Assembly: GCA_963845755.1 (NCBI GenBank)
Contig: CAWJTV010000018.1
Location: 32,001 to 96,000 of the forward strand
DNA: 64,000 nucleotides
From: an uncultured Planctomycetota bacterium
GTDB taxonomy: Bacteria; Planctomycetota; Planctomycetia; Isosphaerales; Isosphaeraceae
Direction: 5' to 3'
The translations under genes and the position numbers were made by a program. Numbering within the stretch: position 1 is the stretch's first letter; each line of letters opens with the position of its first letter. A model generated the notes under the pieces. The model saw only the letters and a program-made list of their open reading frames with translations, ran no database searches and was not told where the DNA came from. Positions 4,738 to 57,594 of this stretch are shown one piece after another.

Positions 4738-4939
4738 TCGGTTGACTCGGCCTCGCGAGCCAGTCGGTCAAGGTCGGGGCGCGCCGTAGCCCGATGGCGG
4801 CGCGCCCGACCGGACCTGGCTTGACCGGTTCGGGGCCGACCGGTTCTCATCATCCGTGTTCGCGCCGGGTCTCGCCCGGCCCACGGACGTTCCGGCAGCG
4901 ATCCACATCACGAGGTGCGACCGGTGGAGAGATGAGACC

Positions 4940-5203: not shown

Positions 5204-5377
5204 AGCGCGTCACGAATGGATGGAGATCGCCGGACGGAGCCGGCTCCTACAAGGAGACGTCGGGCCGGCCGATGGAGGAGGGACCCTGTCGCCCGACCGT
5301 CGGACTTGCTAACTTTGATACGCATCCCACGCCGAACCTGCGGCTGACGTCCCGGGATCGATCCGAGGGCCCCTGTC

Positions 5378-8819: not shown

Positions 8820-8852
8820 GCGAGGGACCTTCTGCTGTGGAGGGGCCGGACA

Positions 8853-10275: not shown

Positions 10276-11161
10276 TCCGCTCACGCGGCCACGCTTGATT
10301 CTCTCCTACGATCTCGGATTCAGGCGATCAGTCCCAACCTGGTTCGATCGTGCGAAGGCCATCTTGACTGAACTTCCGGCACACCCAAGTCTCAAGGACT
10401 TTCGGCCAATATGGCGTGATATCAAGAAGATTTACATTGAGTTACAGCACTCGAAATGTGCGTTCTGCGAGAAGCCGCTCGAAGGGCGAGATCGAACAGG
10501 ACGTCGAACATTTCCGACCCAAGGCCGAGGTCGAGCCGTGGAGTGTGCCACCGGATCTCGTGCAGGCCGGCGTAAGCTTCGTTCAGCCAGATGATGGCTC
10601 GGCCGAGTTGGGGTACCGGTTCCTGGCCTACCATCCTTTCAATTACGTGATGGCATGCAAGCCCTGCAACTCAGTCCTCAAGAGGAACTTCTTCCCGGTG
10701 GCGAAAGCCCGGAAGACCGGGCGAAGAAGCCACCCTCCTTTGCTACCGAGAAACCCTTGCTGATCTATCCGATCGGTGAAATTGACGTCGATCCCGAGAC
10801 ATTGATTACGTTCGTTGCAGGAGTTGTCCCTCAGCCAGTACAAAGGTCGGGCTTCGGTCGATTGCGGGCACTGGTGACGATCACTATCTTCCAGTTGGGC
10901 GATCCCGTCGAAAGGAAGGTGTTCTATCAAGGCCGTGGCAAGGCAATTCAGAACCTTTACCTCAACCTGAGAGCGACTCGTGAGGATTCGGATCCCGTGA
11001 TCGTGGCTGCGGCCCAGAAGAACGTGGCCCGGATGCTGAAACCGGAAGAACCATTTGCGAGTTGCCTGCGCTCGTTCAACCGCCTTTTCCGGAATTCGCC
11101 GGACCAAGCCCGCCAGGTTTTCAGTGATCTCGCGGAATTCCTCGACACGAACTCACCGTAG
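10272..11161 (+). CDS. HNH endonuclease (PtuB / retron-effector HNH-like), frameshifted
   Basis: ATGA overlap with the ATPase. KCAFCE, DVEHFRPK and NYVMACKPCN..KRNFFP motifs. Confidence 0.8.
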
Positions 11162-11202
11162 ATCCGGCTGGGTGGGCTAGGAATGATCCACGCTGGCAAG
11201 TC

Positions 11203-12485
11203 TCAAAACAAGTCCGCCGGATTGGCACTCCAGACCTTGTTGAGCGTGAACACGGCGGACACCAGCCCGACCACGAGCGTCAGGAGGAGAGTGAGGGCCA
11301 GGATGCCGGCGGTCATCCGCATCGGGATTCCGGCCAGGGCCTCCGTGATCCGGTAGAGGCCGAAGCCGAGAATCCCGGCGATGAGGTAAGCGGCGACCGC
11401 GTACAGGATGGCCTGGATCACGACGACGCGCGCCAGGTATCCGTTCGAATGCCCCATGGCCTTGAGCGTCGCGTACTCGGGCAAATGGTCGCGCACGTCG
11501 TTGGAGAGGACCTGGTACACCACCGCCGACGCCACGATCGTCGCGACCAGCACACCAAACGCGAACAGCTTCCCGGTCGAGGTCTGGCGGACCCAGTGAT
11601 CCGACTCGCGGGCGAGGATCTCGGAGCGGGAATAGGGGACGACGTCGGGCGGGAGGATCGCGCGGAGCGCCCGGCACGTGGCGTCGATCGTCGCACCATC
11701 GCTGCGGCGGAGTGTCAAGAAGCCGAACTCGACCGGCTCGATTGAGGGTCGCTCGCACAGCCGCGCGAAATTGACGTCGCTGCAGATGGCCACGCCATCG
11801 GCGGCGAATCCGCGCAGCAGGGAGAAACCCCCCACGATCTGAACCGCCGATCGGCCCATCTCCCACTCGTCATGCCGGCCGACCAGCGGCCAGCCGAAGT
11901 CGAGGTTGGACAGCTCGTCGAGCAGCACGCGCGCCGGACTCCTGTAGCCGCGGCCTGGCATTCTCGATCGATTTCCGAATGGTTCCCCCAAAAGGGTCCT
12001 CTTCCAGGTCGACGCCCAGCACCAGCAGCTCGCGGCGCTTGATCGGCCGGGGGAGCCGGTCGCCGAGTAGCCATCGACGCAATGCCCCGGGCTCGGGTCG
12101 CTCGTCGTCCCAGGCCACGGACGCGTCGTCCGGCGGGTAAGGCGGGCATCGCCAGAGGTTGAACTGGGAATACAGCGGCCGGGCACTCGCGACCACCTCC
12201 AGCGACCGGGCCTGCCGGAGCCGCTCTCGGGGAAACTCACCCGGGGCGTAGAACTGGTCGTACGTCGGGGCCAGGAGGACGATATCGAAATCCAACTGCT
12301 CGTAGAGGTTCGTGGCCGTGATCTTCACGGCCTCGTAGAAGCCCAGTTGGAGCAAGACCATCGTCACCGCGAACGCCACGCCGGCAATCGCCACGACCGT
12401 GCGCCGGGCGCCGTGGACCACGTTGCGCACGCGCCAGAGGGGGATGGGGCGACTTCAACCGCCAGGAGTCGGGCAGGGAGCTCAT
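11203..12485 (-). CDS. devC: DevC-family ABC exporter permease (FtsX-like), frameshifted
   Basis: VAIAGVAFAVTMVLLQLGF, VVYQVLSNDVRDHLPEYATLKAMG, C-terminal ANPADLF. Confidence 0.8.
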
Positions 12486-43329: not shown

Positions 43330-43912
43330 ATGACAACCGTGCCCCGAGGAACCGGGTCCTGCCGCCTTGAGCTGGGAGAAGGCCCGACCGAACGCCTCGA
43401 TCTCAAGGCCCGGTCGCTGGAGCCGATGCGGGAGCTTCGTCAAGCCGAAGAAGCCGTCCGGCCAGCGCGTCAAACGTGCCCGGTCGGTCCAGCCCCAAGA
43501 TCAGCCGCGTTCCATCGAGGAACTCCCCCGGCCGCTGATGGCGCACGGCCTCATCACCCGCCTCCCCGATCCCGCGTGGACATCGACGAAGACGACCCGG
43601 GCGATCCGCCTATCCCCATCGTGGGCGAGCCTTCGTCGGAAGCCATCATCCGGGAGCGGCGCTGAAGCGGCGTTGTCGTATTTCGTCGATCCGAGTGCTC
43701 GGATCCGACGCGAGGTTCAGGAAATCCGAACCACCTGGGTTCGCGGCAGCACGGCCACGGCCCGTCCAACGTGATCGACATCGCCCGGCACACCGCCGTC
43801 GAATTCACCGGCCCCGTCGCGTGAGGGCGTAAAGGAAAACGCTCACCCCCCTGCGGCGCATCGTCGATTCTCCACCGCTTCGGCCCGCCTCTCGGTGGTC
43901 GGCATACCGTCG
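43330..43912 (+). pseudogene. Decayed antitoxin plus VapC/PIN toxin pair, toxin 3'-truncated
   Basis: Antitoxin-like end IPIVGEPSSEAIIRERR* at 43665, then YFVDPSARIRREVQEIRTTWVR..VIDIARHTAVEF (PIN pattern YF.DSSAL.KRY..E.GT.WV) with a stop and indels. Confidence 0.55.
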
Positions 43913-44096
43913 AGGCCGCGACGTTTCCCTCGGACGCCCGATGGCTCAGGGAGTCTTCGAACTCGCCTTCGCCCACTTCGAGAAGACGCCGCTCGCCATG
44001 AACGAGGATGAGCCGCTTGATCCACTGGAGGTAGGCAACCCTCGTGCGAATGCTGTAATGCAACCTCCAGACAACTTCACGGACCCGGTCGAGCAA
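43908..44096 (-). pseudogene. intI: Integron integrase N-terminal (SAM-like) fragment; catalytic domain absent
   Basis: LDRVREVVWRLHYSIRTRVAYLQWIKRLILVHGERR..EVGEGEFEDSLSHRASEGNVAAST follows the IntI N-terminus. It is divergent from the cassette array and no tyrosine-recombinase box follows. Confidence 0.85.
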
Positions 44097-44286: not shown

Positions 44287-44934
44287 TTGGCGACCTTCAC
44301 CGGATACGACCAGGACCGCATCGTCTTCGAGACGATCGCTGATGAGCGGGCCCCCGGCTTGCTACTCCTGATCCACGGGGCCGTCTTCGCAGGGGCACCT
44401 CTCTACGCCTCGGCACTGTACGGGCTGAAGGGGGCCTCAGCTTGGCTGCTCCTCGTCGTGGGAGTCCTGGCGGGCCTCGCCGAGACCGCCTTCGCCTCGA
44501 TCGTGCTGCTCAAATCCGAGTGGCTCGTCATCGACCTGCGGCGGCGGTCCTATACCGGGCATCGCGGGGTCTTGTTCTGGGGCGACAAGTGGTCCGGGCC
44601 CATCGGCGACTTCCATCATATCCGGCTGAGTGAGGTCCCTCGCGGGCGACATGGCCGTCATCGCCGCCTGGTCGTCGAATGGGTCTGGGCCGAGCCGGGA
44701 CGCCCTCCGTTCCGCGTCACCGGCTGGGGCCGCCTCAAGTCCTTCCGTATCACCCGATGTCCGCAGGGGGGTGACGGTCGAGGATTCCTGCGGGATCTCC
44801 GCGCCGTCGCTGAGGATGTGGGCCTCCCGTTGGTCGTCCCGGAGCGATATGTCGATGGCCTCGGCGTCAACGACCGGGAAGTCGACGGCCCGGCTAACAA
44901 GGCGATGCAGCGGACCCGCTGCGCGGGCCGCTGA
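44287..44934 (+). CDS. Cassette 1: hypothetical membrane protein (reads through its attC)
   Basis: TTG start after a G-rich RBS, two transmembrane helices, stop within attC. Confidence 0.65.
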   Translation: MATFTGYDQDRIVFETIADERAPGLLLLIHGAVFAGAPLYASALYGLKGASAWLLLVVGVLAGLAETAFASIVLLKSEWLVIDLRRRSYTGHRGVLFWGDKWSGPIGDFHHIRLSEVPRGRHGRHRRLVVEWVWAEPGRPPFRVTGWGRLKSFRITRCPQGGDGRGFLRDLRAVAEDVGLPLVVPERYVDGLGVNDREVDGPANKAMQRTRCAGR

Positions 44935-44950
44935 TCTTGCGTCGTTAGGC
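44892..44950 (+). repeat. attC site (59 bp)
   Basis: GGCTAAC..TGCAGCGGACCCGC..GCGGGCCGCTGA..GTTAGGC. Confidence 0.92.
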
Positions 44951-44967
44951 GGCTTACCGGAGGCACT

Positions 44968-45471
44968 ATGAACTACAAGCAAATAGCCTCGCGTCTCACC
45001 GGCATCAGTTGTCCCGTCTTCGGCGTTTCGTGGAATCCCCCGGCCACAGAGGTCGATGTCGCCCAGCGAGTCCTTTCGTTTCTCGAAGACCGCCGTGTAC
45101 TCTACAACGAGTACGAGATGGAGTTGCCTGACCATTGCATGATGTCGGTCATCGACATTCGCCGCTTTCTCACTGACGTTCTTGGCCGCCTTCCCAACAA
45201 GCAAGGGCTTCCGGCCCATCTGCGTATGATGCGTGCAGCTTGTCGTCAGTTCCTGGACAAGAATGGCGGCGAACGATTCCGCGATCACCAACCGCACATG
45301 TTTGGTGGCCCGGAGACGTGGGTTTTTGCCAGCGCACTTGGCGATCTCCGAACCACAATCGGGCTACACGTGGGAATCGTCTGCACCATGTATGGCCTTG
45401 GCGTCGAGGGCGACCTTGCGAAGATACTCCCCCCGCTGCCGAATGACGATAACGAGGAGGCCGATGCCTAA
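44968..45471 (+). CDS. Cassette 2: hypothetical protein (DUF6650-like)
   Basis: GGAGG RBS; IASRLTGISCPVFGVSWNPP..FLEDRRVLY. The stop TAA lies in R''. The family name is recalled, not searched. Confidence 0.75.
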   Translation: MNYKQIASRLTGISCPVFGVSWNPPATEVDVAQRVLSFLEDRRVLYNEYEMELPDHCMMSVIDIRRFLTDVLGRLPNKQGLPAHLRMMRAACRQFLDKNGGERFRDHQPHMFGGPETWVFASALGDLRTTIGLHVGIVCTMYGLGVEGDLAKILPPLPNDDNEEADA

Positions 45472-45525
45472 CAGGCGGTTGCAGCGGACCCGCCTGCGGC
45501 GGGCCGCTGAACCTTTTCGTTAGGC
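45466..45525 (+). repeat. attC site (60 bp)
   Basis: GCCTAAC...GTTAGGC with the conserved stem. Confidence 0.92.
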
Positions 45526-45545
45526 GGCAGTGTGGAGGCGACGCT

Positions 45546-45812
45546 ATGCGGTCGGCCACCCGATCTTCTCTATTCGTGGTCGCGTGGTCGGTCGGGCTGG
45601 CCTCGCGCTACGCGAACCGCGGTGATCCTCAGTGGGCCACGAAGTTGCGGGTGGCGTGCCTGTTCTTCGTCCTCGGAGGAGCCTTGCTCTGGTCGATCCA
45701 GAAGATCTCCAAGCGGCCGTGGCCTTGGTTCGTAGAAGGCATCGCACTACCGTTCGTCGCCGGCGGCTTGATCTACGGGATCGTCGCCGTACGCAACGCG
45801 TTCAGGGGATAG
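45546..45812 (+). CDS. Cassette 3: small membrane protein
   Basis: GGAGG RBS and three hydrophobic segments. Confidence 0.65.
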   Translation: MRSATRSSLFVVAWSVGLASRYANRGDPQWATKLRVACLFFVLGGALLWSIQKISKRPWPWFVEGIALPFVAGGLIYGIVAVRNAFRG

Positions 45813-45816
45813 CTTT

Positions 45817-45874
45817 GTCTAACAATGCGATGCAGCGGACCCGCTGTGCGGGCCGCTGATCTTGGGCGTTAGCC
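45817..45874 (+). repeat. attC site (58 bp)
   Basis: GTCTAAC...GTTAGCC. Confidence 0.92.
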
Positions 45875-45886
45875 AGCGGAGGGCTC

Positions 45887-46169
45887 ATGGCCGACGATCT
45901 TGTGCACCTCCTGCTCGACATCAAGCTCGCCGGCGACGGGTTCGCATCGCCGGACGAGTTTGATCTCCGGGACCGGCTCGTTGAGCGGATCGAGCGACTG
46001 GGCATCGGTGAGGTCGGCGGCTATGGCTCGGGAGTCGGCGGCATGGACATCTCCGTGCTCGTCGCTGATGAAGCTGAAGGTCGGGGGCGGCTGAGTCGAA
46101 CTCATGCAGGAGGTCGCGCCGGATGCTCGCTTCACCATCGAGGTACTTGCAGACGAGGATGACGGCTAA
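45887..46169 (+). CDS. Cassette 4: small acidic hypothetical protein, frameshift near 46090
   Basis: GGAGG RBS; GIGEVGGYGSGVGGMDISV. The alternative frame ends FTIEVLADEDDG* at the R'' TAA. Confidence 0.65.
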
Positions 46170-46224
46170 CGAGGCGATGCAGCGGACCCGCCTGTCGGCG
46201 GGCCGCTGATCTATGGCGTTAGCC
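46164..46224 (+). repeat. attC site (61 bp)
   Basis: GGCTAAC...GTTAGCC. Confidence 0.92.
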
Positions 46225-46234
46225 GGCGTGGGTC

Positions 46235-46564
46235 ATGACACACGATATCGAGGCCGAGTTGACCCTCCTTCCGACCGAGCACGGCGGGCGCCACCTTCCA
46301 GTGTCCTCCGGCTACCGCCCCCAGTTCTATTACAGCGGCCACGACTGGGACGCGGTCCATACATACGTCGATGTCACGGAAGCCCGTCCCGGCGATACCG
46401 TCACCGTCCGGTTGTCCTTCCTTAGCCCGGAAGCGCACGCGGGCAGGATCTTCGCCGGCATGCCGTTCCTCGTGCGCGAGGGTAATCGGGTCGTCGGATA
46501 TGGTCGCGTGACTCGCATCCTTGACTTGGAGGCGGCACATCGACAATCTTCGAAGGAGGGCTAA
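46235..46564 (+). CDS. Cassette 5: stand-alone EF-Tu C-terminal (domain III)-like protein
   Basis: EAELTLL.TEHGGRH.PV.SGYRPQFY..PGD.V....F.VREGNRVVGYG.VT.I parallels EF-Tu domain III. Confidence 0.8.
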   Translation: MTHDIEAELTLLPTEHGGRHLPVSSGYRPQFYYSGHDWDAVHTYVDVTEARPGDTVTVRLSFLSPEAHAGRIFAGMPFLVREGNRVVGYGRVTRILDLEAAHRQSSKEG

Positions 46565-46616
46565 CAAAGCGATGCAGCGGACCCGCTGCGCGGGCCGCTG
46601 AATTTGGGCGTTAGCC
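46559..46616 (+). repeat. attC site (58 bp)
   Basis: GGCTAAC...GTTAGCC. Confidence 0.92.
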
Positions 46617-46641
46617 AGCATTCCGATTGCACGGGGGGGAC

Positions 46642-47005
46642 ATGAGGGCCGATGATGACCCGTACTTCACGGCGACCGACAAGGCCAAGCCGCATCCGCC
46701 CCGCGGCATGGCGCAGCTCGTGGTGCGAATCCCTTGGTGCCTCTCCTGGGTCGCCGTGGCGCTCCTGTCTATGCAGGTGTTCGTCTCGCCGATCATCTAC
46801 CAGTCGCGGCTGGCGACCGGGGCCTATATCATGACGGAGATCGGGGCCGGGGCGGCTCGGTGCCATCTCGGCCTTCGGCGTGCTGGCCATCCGACTGGTG
46901 CGTTCAGGAGGCTCGCCCGATCCGTACACGAGGAGACTGGCTTGGTCGATACTGAGGGGCCTGCTGGTTGTCATCCTCATAATGACGGGGCTCGAGGTCG
47001 CCTGA
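46642..47005 (+). CDS. Cassette 6: membrane protein, frameshift near 46850
   Basis: Hydrophobic segments continue in the shifted frame (LGAISAFGVLAIRL..GLLVVILIMTGLEVA*). Confidence 0.55.
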
Positions 47006-47015
47006 GGGAGGCCCC

Positions 47016-47075
47016 GGCTAACAAGGCGATGCAGCGGACCCCGCTGCGCGGGGCCGCTGATCTGGGGCGTTAGAC
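47016..47075 (+). repeat. attC site (60 bp)
   Basis: GGCTAAC...GTTAGAC. Confidence 0.92.
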
Positions 47076-47084
47076 GGTGGGGCA

Positions 47085-47420
47085 ATGAGCGTCAGCGACG
47101 ATCTTGACCGGTTGTTTCCAGGCCACCGCTCGCCCGAGCGGGTTGCCGATTGGGAGGCGCTCGAGCAGCGCCTTGCCTACGGGCAGTCCGTCACTGGTAC
47201 GGTCGTCGTCAAATCCCCGTTCGGGGCGTGGGTCGACCTCGGCGTCGGTTTCCCTGCCCTGCTGGAGATCATCGTCATTGTGGGCCTGACGCCCGAGAAA
47301 TATCGTGCGGGTGACTGGTGCCCTGTCGGTAGCGAAGTCTCGGCGTTTGTCGGTGGATTCCGCGATGACTCTCATCAGATAGGGCTGTGGCAGGTGCCGG
47401 TCGGCCATGGCCGCGTCTAA
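47085..47420 (+). CDS. Cassette 7: stand-alone S1/OB-fold-like protein
   Basis: GQSVTGTVV...PFGAWVDLGVGFPALL..VGSEVSA.V.....QIGL. The stop lies in R''. Confidence 0.7.
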   Translation: MSVSDDLDRLFPGHRSPERVADWEALEQRLAYGQSVTGTVVVKSPFGAWVDLGVGFPALLEIIVIVGLTPEKYRAGDWCPVGSEVSAFVGGFRDDSHQIGLWQVPVGHGRV

Positions 47421-47473
47421 CTCCGCGTTGCAGTGGACCCGCCTGCGGCGGGCCGCTGAACTTTCCGTTAGGC
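47415..47473 (+). repeat. attC site (59 bp)
   Basis: GTCTAAC (complements the preceding GTTAGAC)...GTTAGGC. Confidence 0.92.
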
Positions 47474-47492
47474 TGCGGAGGCGCAGCGGGTT

Positions 47493-47810
47493 GTGGAGTG
47501 GCTCGTGCCATGGCATTCTGTCGCTGATGATCCAGCCTAGGTGGAGGGCATGGTACGTGAGTTACTCCGCGAGCTTGCTGAAGGTCACCCGCTCTACCGC
47601 CTCCCGGTGCGGACGTGGGGTCGCAGGCAGGACCGCGACGACGTGCTGTTCGCCATAGAAGATGGTAGCGGGCGCGTCGCGGTCGTCCATCTGGCGTGGA
47701 CTTGGAATCCACCCGATCCTCCGCCCTGGCCATGGACCATGCTGTATCGAAGCTTCGATGCGTGGATCGTCGAGGGTGTGCGCCGCGATTACGACGAGTT
47801 GCATGCCTAA
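47493..47810 (+). CDS. Cassette 8: hypothetical protein with an in-frame TAG at 47538 (or a start at ATG 47550)
   Basis: ELAEGHPLY..RRQDRDDVLF...VAVVHLAW..PWP. The stop lies in R''. Confidence 0.65.
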
Positions 47811-47862
47811 CCTGCGGTGGCAGCGGACCCGCTCCGCGGGCCGCCGATCTTGGGCGTGAGGT
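47805..47862 (+). repeat. attC site (58 bp), R' degenerate (GTGAGGT)
   Basis: GCCTAAC plus the conserved stem. Confidence 0.85.
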
Positions 47863-47917: not shown

Positions 47918-48212
47918 ATGAGCCCGTCGATTCGAGAGGTCAACCCTGGCGAATTGCGGCTCCCACCGAGTCGGGCCAGCGGGGCCGACCCATGGAAGCT
48001 CCACCAGCAGATCCGACAATTTGGAGCGTCGAGGAACGGGATGCCCCCGATCCTTGTACGAGGATCCGGACGGCATCTTGGAGATCTCCGACGGGGTCAC
48101 CCGCGCCACCCGGATCGCCAAGCTGGCACCAGACCAGACAGTCCCGATCGTGGTGATCGGTCAGTATCGACGAAGCCGGGCAGGCTCCCCTTGCGTGAGG
48201 GACCGGTTATGA
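47918..48212 (+). CDS. Cassette 9a: small ParB/Srx-N-like protein, frameshift near 48058
   Basis: MPPILV-YEDPDGILEISDGVTRATRI..TVPIVV resembles the ParB-N PI.V...I.DG..R pattern. Confidence 0.55.
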
Positions 48213-48469
48213 GCGAGAGCGATACCCGTGTGGAATTGTTCGCCGCCCTCCAGGAATTGTCCGAGGTCATCCCCGAGATGCGGTCCGGCCAGCTCGTGGC
48301 GGCGGTCGGGGAGCTGTGCGCCGATCTCCACGGGCGCGGCCTCTGGGACGCCGCCGACGGCGAGTTGCTCAAGGCCGTATGGCTGTTCCGCCGCAACTAT
48401 GAGGCGGCTCTTACCCCGAGCCGGGACGATACCTTCTATGAACCCGCTGAAGTCAAGCCCCCCGACTGA
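48209..48469 (+). CDS. Cassette 9b: small helical protein whose original stop was displaced by the IS
   Basis: ATGA overlap with 9a; PEMRSGQLV..LWDAADGELL. The empty site restores GAT ACC TAA. Confidence 0.7.
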   Translation: MSESDTRVELFAALQELSEVIPEMRSGQLVAAVGELCADLHGRGLWDAADGELLKAVWLFRRNYEAALTPSRDDTFYEPAEVKPPD

Positions 48470-48800
48470 TTTTTTCCGGGCGTCCCGCGGGGCGCGGACA
48501 GCGATCGCTCCGAGTCCGACAGCGTATGTCCTGGCTCCCCGTTTGCGGGGAGCCAGGACACACGCTGTCTCTCGTTCTCCAGACAACGCCGGTGGTCCTG
48601 CGATCGACACTCTCCTTGTCCTTCTCGAAGAACTCCCGAGACCGCGGCTGGTGGCTTCGTCACGCGCGTCGCGCCTGCCAGGAGGCCGCGACCACCTTCT
48701 CTCCGTGTGGATCCTCACTCAAGGGACCGAGCACCCGTTACTCTGTTCGTCCGCGGACGACTCCGAAGCCAGGTGTGGGGACAAACCCATCTAACTCACG
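48435..48800 (-). ncRNA. Candidate bridge/seek RNA region of IS110 copy 1
   Basis: About 360 nt downstream of the transposase, conserved in copy 2, with strong hairpins and the junction-matching 7-mers GTTAGAT and AGAAGGT. Confidence 0.5.
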
Positions 48801-49950
48801 GTCGGCTGCCGCCGACCAGGCGCTTTCCGCCCCCTCGGGGACCTCGCCCTGCTCCAGGTATCGCCACAGCGCGATCAACAACTTGCGGGCCAGGGCCACA
48901 ATCCCCACCTTGCGCCGCCGCGTTGCCCTCGCCGAACCGACGCTGATACCACTGGCTCAAGGCGCTGTGGAGCTGCCAGTGCAGCCAGCCCCAGGCGATC
49001 TCCACCGCCATCCACCGCAGACGACAGTTCCCCGCCTTGCTGATCCCTTGCTCGCGCTGACCGTCGCCACTGGCGTACGGCGTCGGGGCCAAACCGGCGA
49101 GGCTCGCCAGCTCGCGGCGGTTCTGGATCTGCCGCCAGCCGAAGAACTCGCGGACGAACCGCGTCGCGCTCATCGGACCGATCGCCTTGAGGTTCAGCAG
49201 CAGCCGCGGCTTCTCGACGTCGGCCGTCGCGTCGTCGCGGAACGCTCGCCGCTGGGCGTTCTCCAGGTCGCGCACCTGGCGGTCCACCAGTGTCCATCGC
49301 TTGAACTCGCGGCGGATGCGGGCACTCAGCTCGGCCGGGACCGGCCTGCCGTCCCATTGGCGAAGTTGGCCGAGGCGTTCCGGCAACGGGTCATCGACCA
49401 CGACGTCAAGGCCGAGGTTGGCGAGGAGTCCCTTGATGCGATTGGAGTGCTCGGTGCGCTGGCCCTTGACGGCGATCAGCTCGCGGTGGGGCTGACGGCG
49501 GTCCTCATCGTCGGGGGTGGGGATGCGGACGACGCTCCAGAGCTTGTGCTCGCCGCCGTGATAACGGATCAACATCGTCAGGAGCTTGCCGACGTCGAGC
49601 CGATCGCTCTTGGCGCGACGCGCGCGGCGGTTGACCTCGATGCTGGCGGCGTCAACGACGAGGTTCGTGACTGCGTGATGTTGGAGATCGCGATGGAGCC
49701 AGAAGCCGTCGCGGCCGGCCTCGTAGCAGGAGACGAGGGGGACATCGCCGGAAAGGGCGAAGCGTTGCCTGGCGAGGAGGATCTCGCGCTGGAGACCTTC
49801 GAGATCGCGAGCGGGGATGGTGCGGAGCCGCGGCTTCTGGGCCATGGCGGTGGTGAAGGCGAGGTTCAAGGACGTCCAGCCGAGGTCGAAGGCGAGGAAG
49901 AGCGTGTTCGAGGCGGTGGTGGTAGGATGAAGGTCGTGGGTCGCTGACAT
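48796..49950 (-). CDS. IS110 DEDD recombinase/transposase, frameshift near 48915
   Basis: AFDLG, YEAG, AKSDRLD, GLAPTPYASG, GISKAGN.RLR. The tail KVGIVALARKLLIALWR is in a shifted frame. Confidence 0.92.
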   Translation of the reverse strand: MSATHDLHPTTTASNTLFLAFDLGWTSLNLAFTTAMAQKPRLRTIPARDLEGLQREILLARQRFALSGDVPLVSCYEAGRDGFWLHRDLQHHAVTNLVVDAASIEVNRRARRAKSDRLDVGKLLTMLIRYHGGEHKLWSVVRIPTPDDEDRRQPHRELIAVKGQRTEHSNRIKGLLANLGLDVVVDDPLPERLGQLRQWDGRPVPAELSARIRREFKRWTLVDRQVRDLENAQRRAFRDDATADVEKPRLLLNLKAIGPMSATRFVREFFGWRQIQNRRELASLAGLAPTPYASGDGQREQGISKAGNCRLRWMAVEIAWGWLHWQLHSALSQWYQRRFGEGNAAAQGGDCGPGPQVVDRAVAIPGAGRGPRGGGKRLVGGSRP

Positions 49951-50050
49951 GGTAAGACTCCGAGGTTGAGAGGGATTTGGTGAAAGACCTCTTCTGAGGA
50001 GCTTACCGTCGGCGGCTCACCGTTTTCAGCCCGGTCGCTCCGGACATAGT

Positions 50051-50100
50051 ATCTAACCAGGCGATGCAGCGGACCCGGCCCGCTGAGCTTGACGTTAGGC
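50051..50100 (+). repeat. attC site (50 bp, short loop); R'' ATCTAAC rebuilt by the IS end
   Basis: ATCTAAC..TGCAGCGGACCCGGCCCGCTGA..GTTAGGC. Confidence 0.8.
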
Positions 50101-50111
50101 GGCTTCGAGCG

Positions 50112-50357
50112 ATGGCTCGTGAAGACGTGAAGCTCGACATCCTGCGGCTGGTCGCCCGCCATGACGGAGAGTGGTTCTGGTATCACATCGATCGCGCACT
50201 CAGCGGCGCTCGCATCGGATGCGTCGGCCCCTTCACGGCCGAGATCGGTGATTTGGAGTCCGCAGGACTGATCGAGACCCGCCCGAACTTCGCGCTTGGC
50301 GATCAGGGGCGTTACTGGCGAACTGAGGCGGGACGCGCGGCGGTCGCGGACGCCTAA
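50112..50357 (+). CDS. Cassette 10: small winged-helix-like protein
   Basis: LESAGLIE..RYWRTEAGRAA pattern; stop in GCCTAAT. Confidence 0.6.
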   Translation: MAREDVKLDILRLVARHDGEWFWYHIDRALSGARIGCVGPFTAEIGDLESAGLIETRPNFALGDQGRYWRTEAGRAAVADA

Positions 50358-50449
50358 TCGGCGCGGCAGGGGACCTGAACCGCCACAGCACTTAAGGATG
50401 CGAACGAACTCATCTCGGTGGCCCCGGACACTGGCCCAAGTGGTCATGC
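50352..50449 (+). repeat. Degenerate long attC (98 bp)
   Basis: GCCTAAT..GGCAGGGGACC...GTCATGC with weak pairing. Confidence 0.45.
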
Positions 50450-50457
50450 GGCTTCCA

Positions 50458-50485
50458 TTGCTGGTCGGTCCGATCGCGGTATAAT
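50458..50485 (+). promoter_or_regulatory. Promoter of the toxin-antitoxin cassette
   Basis: TTGCTG-N16-TATAAT, followed by GGAGG and ATG at 50502. Confidence 0.6.
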
Positions 50486-50501
50486 GTTGGGGGAGGTGTC
50501 C

Positions 50502-50721
50502 ATGATCCAGACAGTTGAAGCGGTGGTCAACGCGACCGGCCACGTGCGATTGCTCGGCGAAGTGCGAGTCGAACGCGCCCCGTCGGGCTTTGGTGACCGT
50601 GCTCGAAGAGCCGGCCGCTGTACCCGGTGAGGCGGCGCTGCTGGCCGAGGCGGCCTTGGCCGCCGATTGGTCGAGGCCGGAGGAGGATGCCGCGTGGTCG
50701 TACCTTCAGCCGGCGAAGTAG
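50502..50721 (+). CDS. Cassette 11a: putative antitoxin, frameshift near 50575
   Basis: MIQTVEAVV..G.VRLL..RRALVTVLEE..LAADWSRPEEDAAW; overlaps the toxin. Confidence 0.7.
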
Positions 50722-51038
50722 TGCTGGTCCCGTTCCCCTTCTCGGACCTGTCGCAGTCCAAGTTGCGGCCGGCAGTCTGCCTGGCCCCCGCCGGCCGGGG
50801 CGACTGGGTGCTCTGCCAGATCACGAGTAGTCCCTACGGCGATCCCTCGGCGGTGCCGTTGGACGCAACGGACTTCACCACGGGCGGGCTGCTGGTGGCG
50901 AGTTTCGCCCGGCCGGGTAAGCTCTTCACCGCCAGCGTCGGCCTCATGGTGAAATCGGTCGGCATTCTTTCTCCCGCTGCGCTGGCCCGGGTACTTTCGG
51001 TGGTCGCTGCACTCTTCCAGCCACCTTCGGGGCCCTGA
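50694..51038 (+). CDS. Cassette 11b: PemK/MazF-family endoribonuclease toxin
   Basis: GEVVLVPFPFSDLSQSKLRPAV..CQITS..S.ARPGKLFT; GGAGGAGG RBS. Confidence 0.88.
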   Translation: MVVPSAGEVVLVPFPFSDLSQSKLRPAVCLAPAGRGDWVLCQITSSPYGDPSAVPLDATDFTTGGLLVASFARPGKLFTASVGLMVKSVGILSPAALARVLSVVAALFQPPSGP

Positions 51039-51039
51039 C

Positions 51040-51098
51040 GCCTAACGAGGCGATCCAGCGGACCCGCTGGCGCGGGCCGCTGATCTTTAACGTTAGGA
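51040..51098 (+). repeat. attC site (59 bp)
   Basis: GCCTAAC...GTTAGGA. Confidence 0.92.
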
Positions 51099-51117
51099 AG
51101 CAAGAAAAGGGGCTGGC

Positions 51118-51453
51118 ATGAAAGCCTTCGTGGTGTCTCTCAACGGCCAACCGTTCGTGACAGCCGGGGTCGGTGATGATGGCGTCCTCGCCACAGGGCT
51201 CAGCTGGGTCGGTGGCTCCCCACCACGTCCCGTCGAGGGCCGGCTAGATTTTCGCGTGGGCGGCGTTGACGGGCGCACTGGGGAGCACATCAATTGGTCG
51301 GTCCCCGAGATCGGCGTTGGCGACGAGATCACGATCAAGGTCATCGAGACGGCTCAGGTGACGCCTGAAGACGAGCGCTACCGCTTCGACGAGTCGAACT
51401 GCCATATCGGCGTCAGGGGCGAAGAGACCGAGGCGGGAGAAGAGGAGCCTTGA
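51118..51453 (+). CDS. Cassette 12: hypothetical protein
   Basis: MKAFVVSLNG..AGVGDDGVL..VGDEITIKVIE; fills the cassette. Confidence 0.75.
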   Translation: MKAFVVSLNGQPFVTAGVGDDGVLATGLSWVGGSPPRPVEGRLDFRVGGVDGRTGEHINWSVPEIGVGDEITIKVIETAQVTPEDERYRFDESNCHIGVRGEETEAGEEEP

Positions 51454-51456
51454 GTT

Positions 51457-53024
51457 CTTCTATGAAACCGCTGAAGTCAAGCCCCCCGACTGATTCTTTC
51501 CGGGCGCCCCGCGGGCGCGGACAGCGATCGCTCCGAGTCCGACAGCGTGTGTCCTGGCTCCCCGCAAACGGGGAGCCAGGACACACGCTGTTTCTCGTTC
51601 TCCAGGCAACGCCGGTGGTCCTGCGATCGGCACACTCCTTCCTCTTGCGAAAGAACTCCCGGGACCGCGGCTGGTGGCTTCGTCACGCGCGTCGCGCCTG
51701 CCAGGAGGCCACGACCACCTTCTCTCCGTGTCGGTCCTCATTCCAGGGACCGAGCACCCGTTACTCTGTTCGTCCGCGGACAACTCCGAAGCCAGGTGTG
51801 GGGACAAACCCATCTAACTCACGGTCGGCTGCCGCCGACCAGGCGCTTTCCGCCCCCTCGGGGACCTCGCCCTGTTCCAGGTATCGCCACAGCGCGATCA
51901 ATAACTTGCGGGCCAGGGCCACAATCTCCACCTTCGCGCCGCGCGTTGCCCTCGCCGAACCGACGCTGATACCACTGGCTCAAGGCGCTGTGGGGCTGCC
52001 AGTGCAGCCAGCCCCAGGCGATCTCCACCGCCATCCACCGCAGACGACAGTTCCCCGCCTTGCTGATCCCTTGCTCGCGCTGACTGTCGCCACAGGCGCA
52101 CGGCGTCGAGGCCAAGCCGGCGAGGCTCGCCAGCTCGCGGCGGTTCTGGATCTGCCGCCAGCCGAAGAACTCGCGGACGAACCGCGTCGCGCTCATCGGA
52201 CCGATCGCCTTGAGGTTCAGCAGCAGCCGCAGCTTCTCGACGTCGGCCGTCGCGTCGTCGCGGAAGGCACGCCGCTGGGCGTTCTCCAGGTCGCGCGCCT
52301 GGCGGTCCACCAAAGTCCAGCGGTCGAACTCGCGGCGGATGCGGGCACTCAGCTCGGCCGGGACCGGCCTCCCATCCCATTGGCGAAGTTGGCCGAGGCG
52401 TTCCGGCAACGGGTCATCGGCCTCGACGTCAAGGCCGAGGTTGGCGAGCAGGCCTTTGATGCGATGGGAGTGCTCGGTGCGCTGACCCTTGAGGGCGATC
52501 AGCTCGCGATGGGGCTGGCGGCGATCTCCGTCGTCGGGCGTGGGGATGCAGACGATGCTCCAGAGCTTGTGCTCGCCGCCGTGATAACGGATCAACATCG
52601 TCAGGAGCTTGCCGACGTCGAGCCGATCGCTCTTGGCGCGGCGGGCGCGGCGATTGCCCTCGATGCTGGCGTCGTCGACGACGCAGTTGGTGACGGCGTG
52701 GTGTTGGAGATCGCGATGGAGCCAGAAGCCGTCGCGGCCGGCCTCGTGGCCGGAGAGCACGGGGGCGTCGCCGGGGAGGGCGAAGCGGTCTCGGGCGCAG
52801 AGGATCTCGCGCTGAAGGGCGTCGAGATCGCGAGCGGGGATGGTGCGGAGCCGCGGCTTCTGGGCCATGGCGGTGGTGAAGGCGAGGTTCCAGGACGTCC
52901 AGCCGAGGTCGAAGGCGAGGTCGAGCGTGTTCGAGGCGGCGGTGGTAGGATGAAGGTCGTGGGTCGCTGACATGGTAAAACTCCGAGGTTGAGAGGGATT
53001 TGGCGAAAGACCTCTTCTGAGGAG
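51457..53024 (-). mobile_element. IS110-family element, copy 2 (diverged, upstream end truncated)
   Basis: Collinear with copy 1 from CTTCTATG (51457) to CTTCTGAGGAG (53024); lacks about 50 bp of that end. Confidence 0.88.
51819..52973 (-). pseudogene. IS110 recombinase, probably inactive
   Basis: Same motifs as copy 1, but PYASG has become PCACG (conserved Ser lost), with a frameshift near 51935. Confidence 0.8.
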
Positions 53025-53076
53025 GTTAGAGCGCCCCACCGTTGGGTGGCACCCACTCGAAGCCTGCTCCCGAAGA

Positions 53077-53115
53077 ACCCCCTGAACCCCCCCTGCGAAG
53101 GGGGGGTTCGGGGGT
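53077..53115. repeat. REP-like hairpin
   Basis: ACCCCCTGAACCCCCCC-TGCGA-AGGGGGGGTTCGGGGGT; relatives at 57928-58012. Confidence 0.65.
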
Positions 53116-53449
53116 GAGTTCGCAGCGCCTCAGGGCGTGCGCAACGCAAGAGTTAAGCGCTCTAGCTGGCGGCCCGCGGAGGTGGCTGCGTGGGCGGGTT
53201 GCTGGTGGAGCTCAACTTCAGGACCATAGTCGAGGTCTTCAAGGCAGCCTGGCGACATGACTTCCCCAATTCCCCGTGAGGTCCCCGGCGCGCAGATGTC
53301 ATTGAGGTCGCCTCGCAGCCAATGCCCTCACATCCCCTCTGGGACCGCGAGATCGACGGCCGTTAGTTGTCCCGGGGTTCGACGGTCGTTATTGTAACGG
53401 GGAGAAGTCGCCTCTCACGAAGGGAGGTGACGCTCGAGAGACTGCGAAA

Positions 53450-54556: not shown

Positions 54557-54614
54557 GGCTAACCCGCGGTTGCAGCGGACCCGCTGCGCGGGCCGCTGAA
54601 CCTGGGCGTTAGCC
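54557..54614 (+). repeat. attC site (58 bp)
   Basis: GGCTAAC...GTTAGCC. Confidence 0.92.
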
Positions 54615-54631
54615 GGCGGGGGAACGTAATC

Positions 54632-54946
54632 ATGAAAGCGATCTCGTCCGTGCTGCTCATCCTGGCAGTCGCCTGCTCCGGCACGGGGCAAGAGCCGGAG
54701 GACGGCTACGTCCCGGACGATGGATTCGTCCCAAGCAAGGAAGTTGCTATCAAGATTGCCGTCGCGGTCTGGGAGCCGATCTACGGCGCGGAGAAAATCG
54801 CCAAGGAGAAGCCCTACCGTGCGACCCTGGCCGACGGCGTTTGGACCGTCGAGGGATCGCTATCGAAGGGCAGCAACGGCGGTGTGGCCCTCGCCAGGAT
54901 CGCGAAGAAGGACGGCCGCATCCTTCGCGTCACCCACGGCAAGTGA
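54632..54946 (+). CDS. Cassette gene: YbbC/YhhH / NTF2-fold immunity-like lipoprotein
   Basis: Lipobox-like LAVAC; VPSKEVAIKIA.AVW.PIYG..I..EKPY..VW.VEGSL..GG....I.K.DG.IL...HGK. Confidence 0.8.
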   Translation: MKAISSVLLILAVACSGTGQEPEDGYVPDDGFVPSKEVAIKIAVAVWEPIYGAEKIAKEKPYRATLADGVWTVEGSLSKGSNGGVALARIAKKDGRILRVTHGK

Positions 54947-54975
54947 CTCTGAACCGGGGCGCCATCGAGGGTCGC

Positions 54976-55032
54976 GCCTAGCCTTGCGATGCAGCGGACC
55001 CGCTTTGCGGGCCGCTGAGCTTTGTGTGAGGT
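54976..55032 (+). repeat. attC site (57 bp), both cores degenerate
   Basis: GCCTAGC, conserved stem, GTGAGGT. Confidence 0.8.
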
Positions 55033-55038
55033 GGCGTA

Positions 55039-55386
55039 GTGAGAGCGTCCACGCGACAACGTGACCATGGACTCCCGCTCGTCCTTCGTTGGTCGCGGGA
55101 CGTCCTGGGAGCGTTCGTCACTCTGGTAGCCCTCGTGTTCACGACCCGGAACTGGGGGACGCCAGCGGCGGCAGTCAACTGCGCCCTCGCTGTCGCCGGG
55201 GCCGTCGGGCTCCGGCTGCGATCGTGGCCGGTCCTCGCAGCCTTGTCTGGTGCGTATCTCGGCGCCATCGCGGGGACCTCCATGGGGGACTCGGCGGTAA
55301 ACGCGCCGGTTCATGGTCTGTTGCTCGCCATCTGCGGGACGGTTGTGGGATATGGCTTTCAAATGATGGAGCGGGGACCGGCCTAA
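55039..55386 (+). CDS. Cassette gene: small membrane protein
   Basis: Four hydrophobic segments; stop in R''. Confidence 0.6.
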   Translation: MRASTRQRDHGLPLVLRWSRDVLGAFVTLVALVFTTRNWGTPAAAVNCALAVAGAVGLRLRSWPVLAALSGAYLGAIAGTSMGDSAVNAPVHGLLLAICGTVVGYGFQMMERGPA

Positions 55387-55439
55387 CGAAGCATGGCAGC
55401 AGCCCCACTGCGCGGGGCCGCTGATCCTGGGCGTTAGGC
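55381..55439 (+). repeat. attC site (59 bp)
   Basis: GCCTAAC...GTTAGGC. Confidence 0.88.
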
Positions 55440-55461
55440 GGCGGAAGGGGAGGGTTTGGGG

Positions 55462-56100
55462 ATGCGTTCGTTCTGGGGCGAGTTCGTTCGCGCGCGTGCC
55501 TTCTGGGTGAGCTACGTCAGCGCGGGGGTGGATTTCGTCGGTTGCGGCAGCCTCCAGGCTGACCAACGGCTGCTCTGGGAGGAGCCGACGTGCGGGGCGA
55601 CGCTGATGTTCCGCTTCCCCGACTCCCACCGGCTGCGCCTGGATGTTGCGGCGGGGGAGCATAAGCTGCAACTGCTGCACCCCGACTACGACGAGCCGCA
55701 ACTTGTTGGCACGATGGACTGTCACCAGATGAGCGATCTCTTCCGGTGGGACGAGTTCCGGGCGGTCACCCGGCACCTGGCCACGACTTCCGGCCCGACG
55801 TCGGCGCACGAACTGTTGCTGAGTTTCTACGTCGCCGTCACCGAGGATTGTGCGGATGAGCATGCGGTGGTGCTGCGGCGGACCCTGGAAGCGTCGGAGG
55901 TATTTGCCGTCCCGGAAATCGAGCATATCTTGGCCTATACGCGTCGGGTTGCGGTGCGTCGGGATTTCCGATGGGTCCACACCCCGGGGTTGGGGTGGCT
56001 GGCAGAGGGCCGCGACACCTACTGCATGCGGCACACGCGGGGTGAGCTCGACTTCGATCGGTTCAGCCGGTTCCTGGGAGCGCTGGCCAGCGACGCGTGA
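55462..56100 (+). CDS. Cassette gene: hypothetical protein
   Basis: GGGAGG RBS; fills the cassette; stop in R''. Confidence 0.7.
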   Translation: MRSFWGEFVRARAFWVSYVSAGVDFVGCGSLQADQRLLWEEPTCGATLMFRFPDSHRLRLDVAAGEHKLQLLHPDYDEPQLVGTMDCHQMSDLFRWDEFRAVTRHLATTSGPTSAHELLLSFYVAVTEDCADEHAVVLRRTLEASEVFAVPEIEHILAYTRRVAVRRDFRWVHTPGLGWLAEGRDTYCMRHTRGELDFDRFSRFLGALASDA

Positions 56101-56194
56101 CCTGCGCTGCAACGGAACCGGACCGCGGCTGCGGCTTTCTGGTAGAATCGAGGCAGATGCTCGGCGGGCCGGGCTGTTGAGCTTGTTGTTACGC
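56095..56194 (+). repeat. Long-type attC (100 bp), degenerate
   Basis: GCGTGAC..TGCAACGG..CCGGACCGC...GCGGGCCGG.CTGTTGA..GTTACGC. Confidence 0.65.
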
Positions 56195-56256
56195 GGCGGC
56201 CAATCTACCGACAGTGGTGATGTCGCGGGGGACCACGCCTGCAGTCGGGGGCTACT

Positions 56257-56604
56257 ATGCAAGAATTCGGGCCCTACTTCCTTCTTGCCTCAATGCTCGG
56301 TTCGCTCCTCGCTCCTCTCCTCATCGGAATCTTACCGAGGGAGGCAGCCAGGCGTGTGGTGGTATGGGCTCTCCGCATCTTGGTCCCGACCTTCCTCGTA
56401 AGTTTCATCTCGCTCGCGGCACAAGGGGATCGAGGCTTCCTCAGCAACTCGCAATCCGTGCTAACGGGCTCCGTCTTCTTGATCCTGTCCGTAGGCCTCG
56501 GCTACTTCGTATCATGGCTGCGTCACACATTGTCGAGCCGAGGTATTCAAGGCTCCCGGGGTGGGAAAATCAAGGCGGGACTATTGGACGATGAATTGGC
56601 CTGA
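56257..56604 (+). CDS. Cassette gene: small membrane protein
   Basis: Three transmembrane segments; stop in GCCTGAC. Confidence 0.65.
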   Translation: MQEFGPYFLLASMLGSLLAPLLIGILPREAARRVVVWALRILVPTFLVSFISLAAQGDRGFLSNSQSVLTGSVFLILSVGLGYFVSWLRHTLSSRGIQGSRGGKIKAGLLDDELA

Positions 56605-56645
56605 CCTGCGGTTGCAGCGGGCCGCTGCAACCTTCACGATTGGAG
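56599..56645 (+). repeat. Collapsed attC remnant
   Basis: GCCTGAC followed by the perfect palindrome GGTTGCAGCGG-G-CCGCTGCAACC; no GTT core. Confidence 0.55.
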
Positions 56646-56654
56646 GCTCTCTCG

Positions 56655-56918
56655 ATGGTCCGTCAACTCTTCACTGTCGAGGATGTCTTCACGATCCGTC
56701 AGCGTGGCACCATCCTCGTGCCGGGAATCGTGCCCGAGGGCGATGAGTGGTTCCATATCGGCGACGGCTTGTGCCTGCGCCGCCCCGATGGGTCGGAAGT
56801 TCGGACGGCGATCGATGGCATCGACTTCTTCAACGTCAGCGAGCACGGTGCTTACGCGATCGTGGTGCCCTTACCTGCATCCGATGTGCCACTTGGCATC
56901 GAGGTCTGGTCGGCATAG
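56655..56918 (+). CDS. Cassette gene: stand-alone EF-Tu domain II-like beta-barrel
   Basis: FTVEDVFTIRQRGTILV.G......IGD.L......RTAIDGIDFF parallels EF-Tu IEDVFSI.GRGTV..G..VG...T.VTG.EMF. GGAGG RBS. Confidence 0.65.
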   Translation: MVRQLFTVEDVFTIRQRGTILVPGIVPEGDEWFHIGDGLCLRRPDGSEVRTAIDGIDFFNVSEHGAYAIVVPLPASDVPLGIEVWSA

Positions 56919-56924
56919 GCTGGA

Positions 56925-56985
56925 GCCCAACAATTGGTTGCAGCCGACGCGCCTGTCGGCGGGCCGCTGAACCTTCGCGTTAGGC
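56925..56985 (+). repeat. attC site (61 bp)
   Basis: GCCCAAC...GTTAGGC. Confidence 0.88.
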
Positions 56986-57036
56986 GGTGGGAGTCTTGGA
57001 GCATCCTTGAGGCGCTGGTGTCGATCGAGGGGTCAT

Positions 57037-57579
57037 ATGCCTTCATCCGTCCGCGGCCTGCTGGGGGCTGTCCCCGTCGTGATGATCGGTTGCCTCGCCA
57101 TCCGGGGCGCTGCTCTGCCGGCTCCCTGGGTCATCACGACCGCGGCGTTCTTGTTCGGCCTCCCCGCATTACTCAGTCCCTCGGCTCGGCCCGAGTGGCG
57201 ATCCGCCTTGATTGCGTTCGCCTGGGCCGGCTCGCTTTACCTCGTGCTGTGCTTCGGCCCCGGCCTCGACCTGTGCGAACTCGAGTACCTCCCCTCCACG
57301 GCGGCACTCAATCGCCTCTTCCCGGTGATATTCACAGAAGGCTATCTCCAAGACCTGGCGGTCGAGCGTGAAGGCTGCACTTGCGACCGATGTGTCACTG
57401 ATGTCCGGGACGGCCTCCGTAGCGGATTTCTCCAGGCAGGCCACATCGTCACCGCGTTGCTCGCGGCGGCACTCTCTGGGCTGGCAGCTTGGGCGCTGTC
57501 ATCGTATCGTGGGGTGGGCGTACGAAAAGAGGCCCGGCCTAACCCACGGTTGCAGCGGACCCCTGCCGCGGGCCGCTGA
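57037..57579 (+). CDS. Cassette gene: membrane protein with CxCxxC (reads through attC)
   Basis: Four hydrophobic segments and GCTCDRC. Confidence 0.6.
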   Translation: MPSSVRGLLGAVPVVMIGCLAIRGAALPAPWVITTAAFLFGLPALLSPSARPEWRSALIAFAWAGSLYLVLCFGPGLDLCELEYLPSTAALNRLFPVIFTEGYLQDLAVEREGCTCDRCVTDVRDGLRSGFLQAGHIVTALLAAALSGLAAWALSSYRGVGVRKEARPNPRLQRTPAAGR

Positions 57580-57594
57580 CCTCGAGCATTAGGC
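57537..57594 (+). repeat. Last clear attC (58 bp), R' mutated to ATTAGGC
   Basis: GCCTAAC plus the conserved stem. Confidence 0.82.

Follow-up and report, generated by a model that had tools for sequence, protein, structure and literature searches.

Which kind of mobile element has entered the attC sites of a planctomycete integron, and what leads it there? These questions are raised by a stretch of 64,000 nucleotides (nt) from an uncultured Planctomycetota bacterium (the window; positions 32001-96000 of contig C18 in genome G000, an assembly of 14.27 Mb in 49 contigs), in which an array of gene cassettes is interrupted by two copies of an insertion sequence (IS). Our analysis indicates that these copies very probably derive from an IS of about 1.78 kb of the IS110 family, in which a DEDD transposase is guided by RNA, that the element targets the R'' box of attC, and that it is unrelated to the IS1111-attC elements of Proteobacteria.

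The two insertions in the window

The window had previously been read from its letters alone as carrying, at 48433..53024, two separate insertions that share a CT dinucleotide with the R'' box (the sequence-only reading). The junctions quoted there are all present (the CT core is bracketed, a caret marks the boundary of the element): copy 1 starts at its right end with GATAC[CT]^TCTATG (CT at 48433-34) and finishes at its left end with CATAGTAT[CT]^AACCAGG (CT at 50053-54), and copy 2 starts at GTT[CT]^TCTATG (CT at 51457-58), 3 nt past a TGA stop codon (51451-53). The proposed opening cores of the interrupted cassettes, GTGAGGT and GTTAGGA, likewise occur at 47853-59 and 51092-98. Copy 2 lacks its last ~52 bp together with the attC, as its homology stops at 53026, where a repeat of ~140 bp starts, with no attC remainder beyond.

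47918-48469, plus strand: cassette open reading frame (ORF) whose original TAA stop lay in the R'' box and which now extends 35 nt into the IS (frame hand-checked)
48433..48434, no strand: CT core, right-end junction of copy 1 (from the sequence)
48435..50054, minus strand: IS copy 1, 1620 bp, an internally deleted form of the ~1783-bp element (from sequence and alignment)
48528..48559, no strand: hairpin with a 14-bp stem in the IS right end of copy 1, terminator-like on the cassette-sense strand
48796..49950, minus strand: transposase frame of copy 1, 384 amino acids (aa) as listed, with the frame lost past ...FGEGN and the C-terminal tail deleted
48819..48820, no strand: junction of a 155-bp internal deletion common to both window copies
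50051..50099, plus strand: attC occupied by copy 1; R'' = ATCTAAC (AT from the IS, CT core at 50053-54), R' = GTTAGGC
51118..51453, plus strand: cassette ORF of 111 aa whose stop lies 3 nt before the CT at 51457-58
51459..53026, minus strand: IS copy 2 with the same 155-bp deletion; left end (~52 bp) and attC remainder lost; transposase ATG at 52973
53024..53165, no strand: repeat of ~140 bp with more than 50 genomic copies, abutting the broken end of copy 2

When 48435-50054 is removed in silico, ACCTAAC is joined to CAGGCGATGCAGCGGACCC...GTTAGGC and codon 48434-36 becomes TAA, so that the predicted restoration of the upstream stop codon is borne out. The accompanying claim that a normal attC results is only partly correct: ACCTAAC...GTTAGGC is re-formed, but the site is short, measuring ~50 nt, and its fold is weak (-7.5 kcal/mol, z score 0.06). 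At the level of the sequence, insertion therefore costs the cassette its TAA stop, while CTAAC...GTTAG of the attC stays contiguous. The copies are 93-94% identical to each other and, as had been stated, antisense to the array, with both transposase frames on the minus strand and all 15 attC hits of the window as well as the cassette ORFs on the plus strand.

The 155-bp deletion takes out the tail of the transposase, an AT-rich stretch and the 5' strand, i.e. one half, of the target loop in the predicted guide RNA described below. Since both window copies share it, they are best regarded as defective, non-autonomous derivatives, and because they nevertheless lie at two different attCs, they were presumably mobilised in trans, with transposase and RNA supplied to them. 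Soil-metagenome contigs contain the full-length form, which reveals itself through loose ends at 48822-48825. Two smaller observations concern the same region. The right-end hairpin could halt transcription of the array, and in copy 2, where it lies at 51549-51580, its 4-nt loop has the opposite orientation to that in all other copies. The ~140-bp repeat has inverted ends and resembles a miniature mobile element.

Insertion sites across the genome

A BLAST search of the whole genome identified six long copies, two each on C18, C47 and C39, and two partial ones (C39:464325-464671 and C5:77323-77704). To these, attC sites were assigned with a profile built from nine window attCs and run with nhmmer over the genome. 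All eight loci sit at RYCT^AAC of an attC R'' box, in differing cassettes, so that in this genome no copy was found at a random non-attC site. The right-end junctions read NYCT^TCTATGAA in 7/7 copies (ACCT, TTCT, GCCT, TTCT, TTCT, GCCT, GCCT), the left-end junctions CAT(A/C)GT(A/C)TCT^(A/C)AC followed by a profile-detected attC remainder in 6/6. The CT core within R'', proposed from the window copies, is hence a genome-wide property, and this core (AG on the other strand) is present at both junctions of every complete copy; in relatives it flanks the element in eight of the nine loci that have both ends. As is characteristic of the IS110 family, insertion is site-specific, and apart from the core dinucleotide found at both ends no target sequence is duplicated.

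The upstream flanks comprise seven different sequences, and the 300 bp 5' of each copy are unique, an unrelated repeat close to C47a (one of the C47 copies) being the only exception, which argues for separate insertions, as had been suggested. In addition, C36 carries a left-end-like fragment of 60 bp (82%) at a non-attC site, which is taken to belong to a different relative.

Layout of the element and its transposase

Full-length copies measure ~1783 bp and consist of a left end of 102 nt, a frame of 395 aa and a right end of ~490 nt. The long non-coding end with the predicted guide RNA region is located 3' of the transposase, as in the IS1111 group. In an intact relative, which resides in another Planctomycetota metagenome-assembled genome (MAG; MFD09671, 86% identity, three copies with identical intact 395-aa frames), residues 59-370 match NF033542, 'IS110 family RNA-guided transposase', with 166.2 bits (cut-off 140). 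PF02371 is matched by the window copy and the intact relative with E values of 1.7e-14 and 5.5e-17, respectively, and the C-terminal region weakly matches the transposases of ISCro4 and IS621, both of solved structure. The assignment to the IS110 family made from the bare sequence is thereby supported. Candidate acidic residues (FDLG, YEAG, VVDA, SDRLD) were spotted by eye only. The copies are 91.0-99.3% identical to each other, and their variable sites are distributed 35/28/73 over codon positions 1, 2 and 3, a spread indicating that part of the divergence arose under selection.

A predicted guide RNA in the right end

The idea that the element is RNA-guided gains support from a consensus structure derived from nine sequences (51-86% transposase identity), which is located ~120-330 nt upstream of the right end. 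The predicted fold of ~210 nt comprises 45 pairs in eight helices and two internal loops. Pairing is found in 91.8% of the cells, compared to 81.7% in shuffled alignments, none of which (0/500) reached the same value; compensatory changes occur in 20 pairs, and slid controls pair at 32-48%. As described for the IS110 family, a non-coding end is thus predicted to hold a covarying structure whose loops match target and donor. In copy 1 the loop strands are located as follows.

48791..48798, minus strand: left target guide TGAGTTAG, the 3' strand of the target loop; same as the attC bottom strand at R''
48735..48744, minus strand: 5' strand of the donor loop, AGAGTAACGG; its AGTA copies the IS left end, bottom strand
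48695..48706, minus strand: 3' strand of the donor loop, ACGGAGAGAAGG; its AGAAG copies the IS right end plus core

In this genome, the 3' strand of the target loop reads TTTGTTAG or TGAGTTAG, which equals the attC bottom strand at R'' and ends in the AG of the core. The corresponding guide pattern is T(T/G)(T/A)GTTAG, its closing AG representing the CT core. Across five target types, the guide 8-mer equals the element's own left flank at 34 of 40 positions; the true pairing of guides and flanks is the best of 120 permutations, with derangements reaching at most 20. Guide and flank change together, reading TTATTCAG and TTATTCAG in L049, GCTTCAG and GCTTCAG in L053, and GGATGAG and GGATGAG in L055 (loci of relatives are numbered with L). 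Similarly, AGTA of the donor loop becomes AGCAT in step with a change of the left end from ATACTATG to ATGCTATG (L053, L054). The donor loop also holds (G/T)AGAAG, matching the right end plus core, and all ten aligned elements have an unchanged CTTGAC close to the right end. Guide matches could not be extracted by a plain k-mer search, the output of which was too noisy. An AT-rich TTGTTC-N18-TAAAAT, noticed by eye as a candidate promoter, was discarded, as it is not conserved in L049, L050 and L056.

By analogy to IS621 and ISKpn4, the element might be excised as a circle, in which the conserved TTGAC of the right end and TACTAT of the left end would be joined to form a junction promoter. The RNA would then bridge circle junction and target, and the recombinase would swap strands at the CT core. 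Strand exchange at this position would leave the IS with RYCT on one side and AAC on the other, and invariably in antisense to the cassettes.

How strict is the choice of attC?

Several observations weigh against the reading of the element as an RNA-guided IS that homes to attC. With regard to the RNA, only the L047, L049 and L053 types show a right target guide, as a complement of core plus right flank; L050, L054 and L055 lack it and give inconsistent registers, and the right flank is not conserved in this genome. Rfam returned nothing relevant, either for the whole window at the gathering threshold or for a full copy at E values up to 1, and a scan of the right end with a strict sigma-70 consensus gave 0 sites. 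With regard to the transposase, the N-terminal RuvC-like DEDD domain PF01548 was not reported by Pfam at E values up to 1, and the frame is broken at least once in each of the six long copies. Four of these break at one GC-rich spot, at which soil-metagenome contigs of related copies, which also contain the 155 bp, have two extra bases. These frameshifts may be real or may be assembly errors, leaving the state of the copies uncertain, given that 1-bp indels also split rpoB (G000:C34 ~81187) and rpoC (~569325), both inside conserved motifs; the assembly thus carries indel errors, and frameshifts in the window are to be read cautiously. With regard to the target, a guide of 7-8 nt cannot by itself account for an attC occupancy of 100%, and relatives outside this genome that have GTTAG at the junction are found at attC in three cases (L047, L051, L063) and at non-attC sites in five (L048, L050, L060, L064, L065). 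Thus, the proposed attC homing applies to all eight loci of this genome, but not to five of the eight readable loci of GTTAG-junction relatives elsewhere.

The last two points lead to the most serious alternative, namely that the element targets a short motif (~NTNGTTAG^R) rather than attC as such, that R'' boxes merely provide the commonest harmless copies of this motif where genomes are rich in integrons, and that insertions elsewhere were lost by selection. We regard this as a real possibility, albeit one that we would not expect to prove correct. It draws on the shortness of the guide and on close relatives that reach other targets through guide changes alone. Among the three copies in MFD09671, two lie at the GTTAG of attCs and one at a non-attC site, ...CGCACGGTTAG^GC. 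Eight metagenome loci were found via the left end, seven of them with GTTAG at the junction; L063 is a clear attC, L060, L064 and L065 are devoid of an attC fold or a CTAAC partner, and another three (L058, L059, L061) are cut by contig ends. L050 is a further non-attC site. These non-attC loci indicate that the guide recognizes a short R''-like motif. Against selection among motif copies as the sole explanation, however, stands the occupancy in the present genome, where all eight loci are attCs even though R'' boxes make up only ~12-14% of the matching motifs (21 of 153 TTGTTAG and 52 of 436 T[CT]GTTAG sites in the whole genome). R' boxes, which offer GTTAG on the other strand (0/153 and 18/436 sites, respectively), are not used at any of the eight loci, and the T at position -7 of the guide fits R'' but not R'. 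Moreover, that a 7-nt guide copies the most conserved part of attC is hardly a coincidence. Targeting of the attC R'' box therefore remains our preferred reading, with the addition that, for every locus of this genome to be an attC, further recognition or a selection of harmless sites must be involved.

Other relatives illustrate the range of targets. L049 (~2780-2904) and L052 represent a 78% relative from another Planctomycetota MAG that targets a repeated GGTCCGATTATTCAG^GCGTCAC; an intact copy of this sequence lies ~75 bp upstream, and the target accordingly resembles a repetitive extragenic palindrome (REP). L046 (G351:C1:484000-498000, ~3200-12100), a 42%-identical relative, is present in four or five identical tandem copies separated by runs of the hexamers GAGGCA/GAGGCG, which are seemingly the target.

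Relation to known elements

An attC-targeting IS1111 group comprising ISKpn4, ISPst6, ISPa21 and ISPa25 was reportedly described by Tetu and Holmes in 2008 and by Post and Hall in 2009. If an ordinary member of this group had arrived in a planctomycete, the shared habit would be explained: in the sections of the published texts available, ISPa21 and ISPst6 are described as lying close to the 5' end of attC and opposite in orientation to the cassettes (PMC3001079), as does the present IS, and a seekRNA has been demonstrated for ISKpn4/ISPst6 (PMC11187229). In both lineages, a transposase of the DEDD type (putatively so in the present IS) is combined with a guide RNA encoded 3' of it, which in the present IS is a predicted one. 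The order within the target loop is also shared with the ISKpn4 seekRNA region, with the right guide 5' and the left guide 3', and the guide reads TAAC of R''. The sequences are nevertheless far apart, and we consider this origin highly improbable. The transposase shares 23% identity with that of ISKpn4 over 206 aa (E 3e-6) and 24% with those of IS5075 and IS4321 over ~55% of its length, whereas ISKpn4 and other named IS1111 members are 30-38% identical over full length. In a tree of 16 transposases, ISKpn4 groups with IS5075, IS4321, ISEc11 and ISKpn2, and the present family forms a separate clade, both supported at 100/100. This tree is unrooted, contains no IS110-group reference (no IS621), and includes one of the six G000 copies and one of the three MFD09671 copies; L052, L055, L056 and L057 were excluded as broken or partial. 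Within the present clade, the attC elements of G000 and MFD09671 are sisters (98/95), adjoining the relative with the REP-like target.

Physical features differ, too. The transposase measures 395 aa, as compared to 347 aa for the ISKpn4 type and to the 330-350 aa given for IS1111 transposases in the accessible part of PMC11187229. The subterminal repeat is only 5 bp long (CTATG/CATAG) and that of the ISKpn4 type 13 bp; the range quoted for the IS1111 group is 7-17 bp (PMC11208160, in excerpt). The hosts are Planctomycetota in one case and Proteobacteria in the other. The insertion point differs as well. ISKpn4, ISPst6 and ISPa25 are stated to share one position (PMC11187229, in excerpt). ISKpn4 was located in 30 plasmid records, two of which were read: in both, it lies on the attC top strand at GCTAACAATTCA^TTCAAGCC, 6 nt 3' of the AAC of R'', with a 4-nt ambiguity (TTCA). 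Thus, ISKpn4 cuts between R'' and L'' and splits the attC, while the present IS cuts inside R'', at CT^AAC, and keeps CTAAC...GTTAG together. The suggestion that this is a distinct lineage with its own insertion point is in line with both the tree and the junctions. The sections available to us of the literature on attC-targeting IS, bridge RNA and planctomycete integrons describe no planctomycete or R''-core lineage. We conclude that the present IS is an independent lineage of attC-targeting RNA-guided elements with a new insertion point.

A second point of comparison is IS621, for which a bridge RNA logic with target and donor guides is set out in the available part of PMC11208160. Shared with it are the CT core dinucleotide, the assignment to NF033542 and a two-loop RNA (predicted for the present IS) in which target and donor guides each copy one strand beside the core. 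Unlike in IS621, the RNA is encoded in the right and not in the left end, the order of the guides inside each loop is reversed, the right guide of the donor loop does not cover the core, and the right target guide is not consistent.

The notion that the integrase had taken up the IS copies as cassettes, or that whole blocks of cassette plus IS had been duplicated instead of the IS being transposed, could appeal to their position between gene and attC, like cassette content, and to the 155-bp deletion common to both window copies. It was rejected as exceedingly unlikely, since no R' core (GTTRRRY) precedes the IS, the copies follow the ends of seven different cassette genes with unique upstream sequence, and relatives in other genomes have the junction at exactly this base.

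The attC after insertion and its implications

Once occupied, the site has the sequence ATCTAAC...GTTAGGC. Folding energies of the six occupied attCs are -15.9, -16.0, -18.5, -13.5, -10.3 and -7.5 kcal/mol, compared with a median of -16.5 kcal/mol (standard deviation 3.8) for 83 unoccupied attCs, and CTAAC/GTTAG pairing is kept in five of the six minimum-energy folds. The weakest is the ~50-nt attC behind copy 1, compared to -17 to -21 kcal/mol for three empty neighbours. From these sequences it might be speculated, tentatively and with the chances rather against it, that the IS hands back a usable ATCTAAC, so that a cassette with the IS aboard would still be excised and re-inserted by the integrase and the element would gain a second route of spread. 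Public sequencing runs, which cover at most 0.19 of the stretch and only as contigs, revealed neither an empty-site joint nor an excision joint.

If attC targeting holds, the guide copies a sequence common to nearly all attCs (GTTRRRY/RYYYAAC), and the IS could enter any integron. The different cut point predicts that cassettes stay mobile with the IS aboard, in contrast to the IS1111-attC group, which splits its site and would thereby inactivate it. Until now, attC was known to be targeted by a single lineage of IS and a single lineage of introns, both from Proteobacteria. With the guide matched to the R'' core, the same target would have been reached by a second, unrelated lineage of RNA-guided IS, which would imply convergent parasitism of integrons and more than one origin of integron targeting. 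The relatives would further represent a natural series in which one scaffold is retargeted to attC, REP-like repeats, hairpins or a hexamer repeat by 6-8 guide bases, and the compact bridge-RNA scaffold with its right-end layout lends itself to comparison with IS621 and ISKpn4.

The surrounding integron

The copies reside in an integron array, as is evident from attCs of one orientation adjoining a remnant of the integrase gene intI in the window, and from a full IntI beside eight attCs on C3. The profile search identified 97 attC sites genome-wide (C39 31, C41 23, C18 15, C47 9, C3 8, C34 7 and four singles). Those of the window, apart from the occupied one, and the head of the array are the following.

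43554-44096, minus strand: ORF containing the intI remnant (ORF list)
43908..44096, minus strand: remnant of the integron integrase gene at the array head (TIGR02249 at C18:75908-76096, E 5e-9, model positions 1-63)
44893..47861, plus strand: eight empty attCs 5' of copy 1, at 44893, 45466, 45817, 46165, 46559, 47017, 47415 and 47806 (nhmmer)
51040..51097, plus strand: empty attC opening the cassette that bears copy 2 (attC profile, fold)
54558..57593, plus strand: five more attCs of the same array, at 54558, 54977, 55381, 56927 and 57537 (attC profile)

The bottom strands of empty attCs fold at -17 to -21 kcal/mol, with z scores of -2.8 to -5.1. The sole full IntI of the genome is encoded at C3:161245-162186 (484.9 bits, cut-off 265), beside the C3 array. 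Short integrase remnants head several arrays (window 43908-44096, C47:23641-23829, C41:42494-42691, C39:443994-444658). One full intI for 97 attCs in six arrays amounts to an unusually large multi-array integron complement.

The cassette arrays also harbour a putative group II intron of ~2.47 kb, whose copies are 98.6-100% identical (G000:C47:6643-9112, minus strand, partly in L003 and L010; C47 10482-12958 and 17974-20441; C41 22420-24892 and 27935-30408; C3 155843-156924 / 158938-160333). Each copy begins with GTGCGAC right after the R' box of an attC (GCGTTAGG^GTGCGAC) and is oriented like the cassettes. An antisense orientation is reported for group IIC-attC introns in the available part of PMC3001079; these introns are, like the present IS, mobile elements specialised on the attCs of cassette arrays, but as ribozyme/reverse-transcriptase retroelements they are mechanistically unrelated to it. 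The intron found here holds a reverse-transcriptase frame of 578 aa with an HNH-like tail, and copies of 81% identity occur elsewhere.

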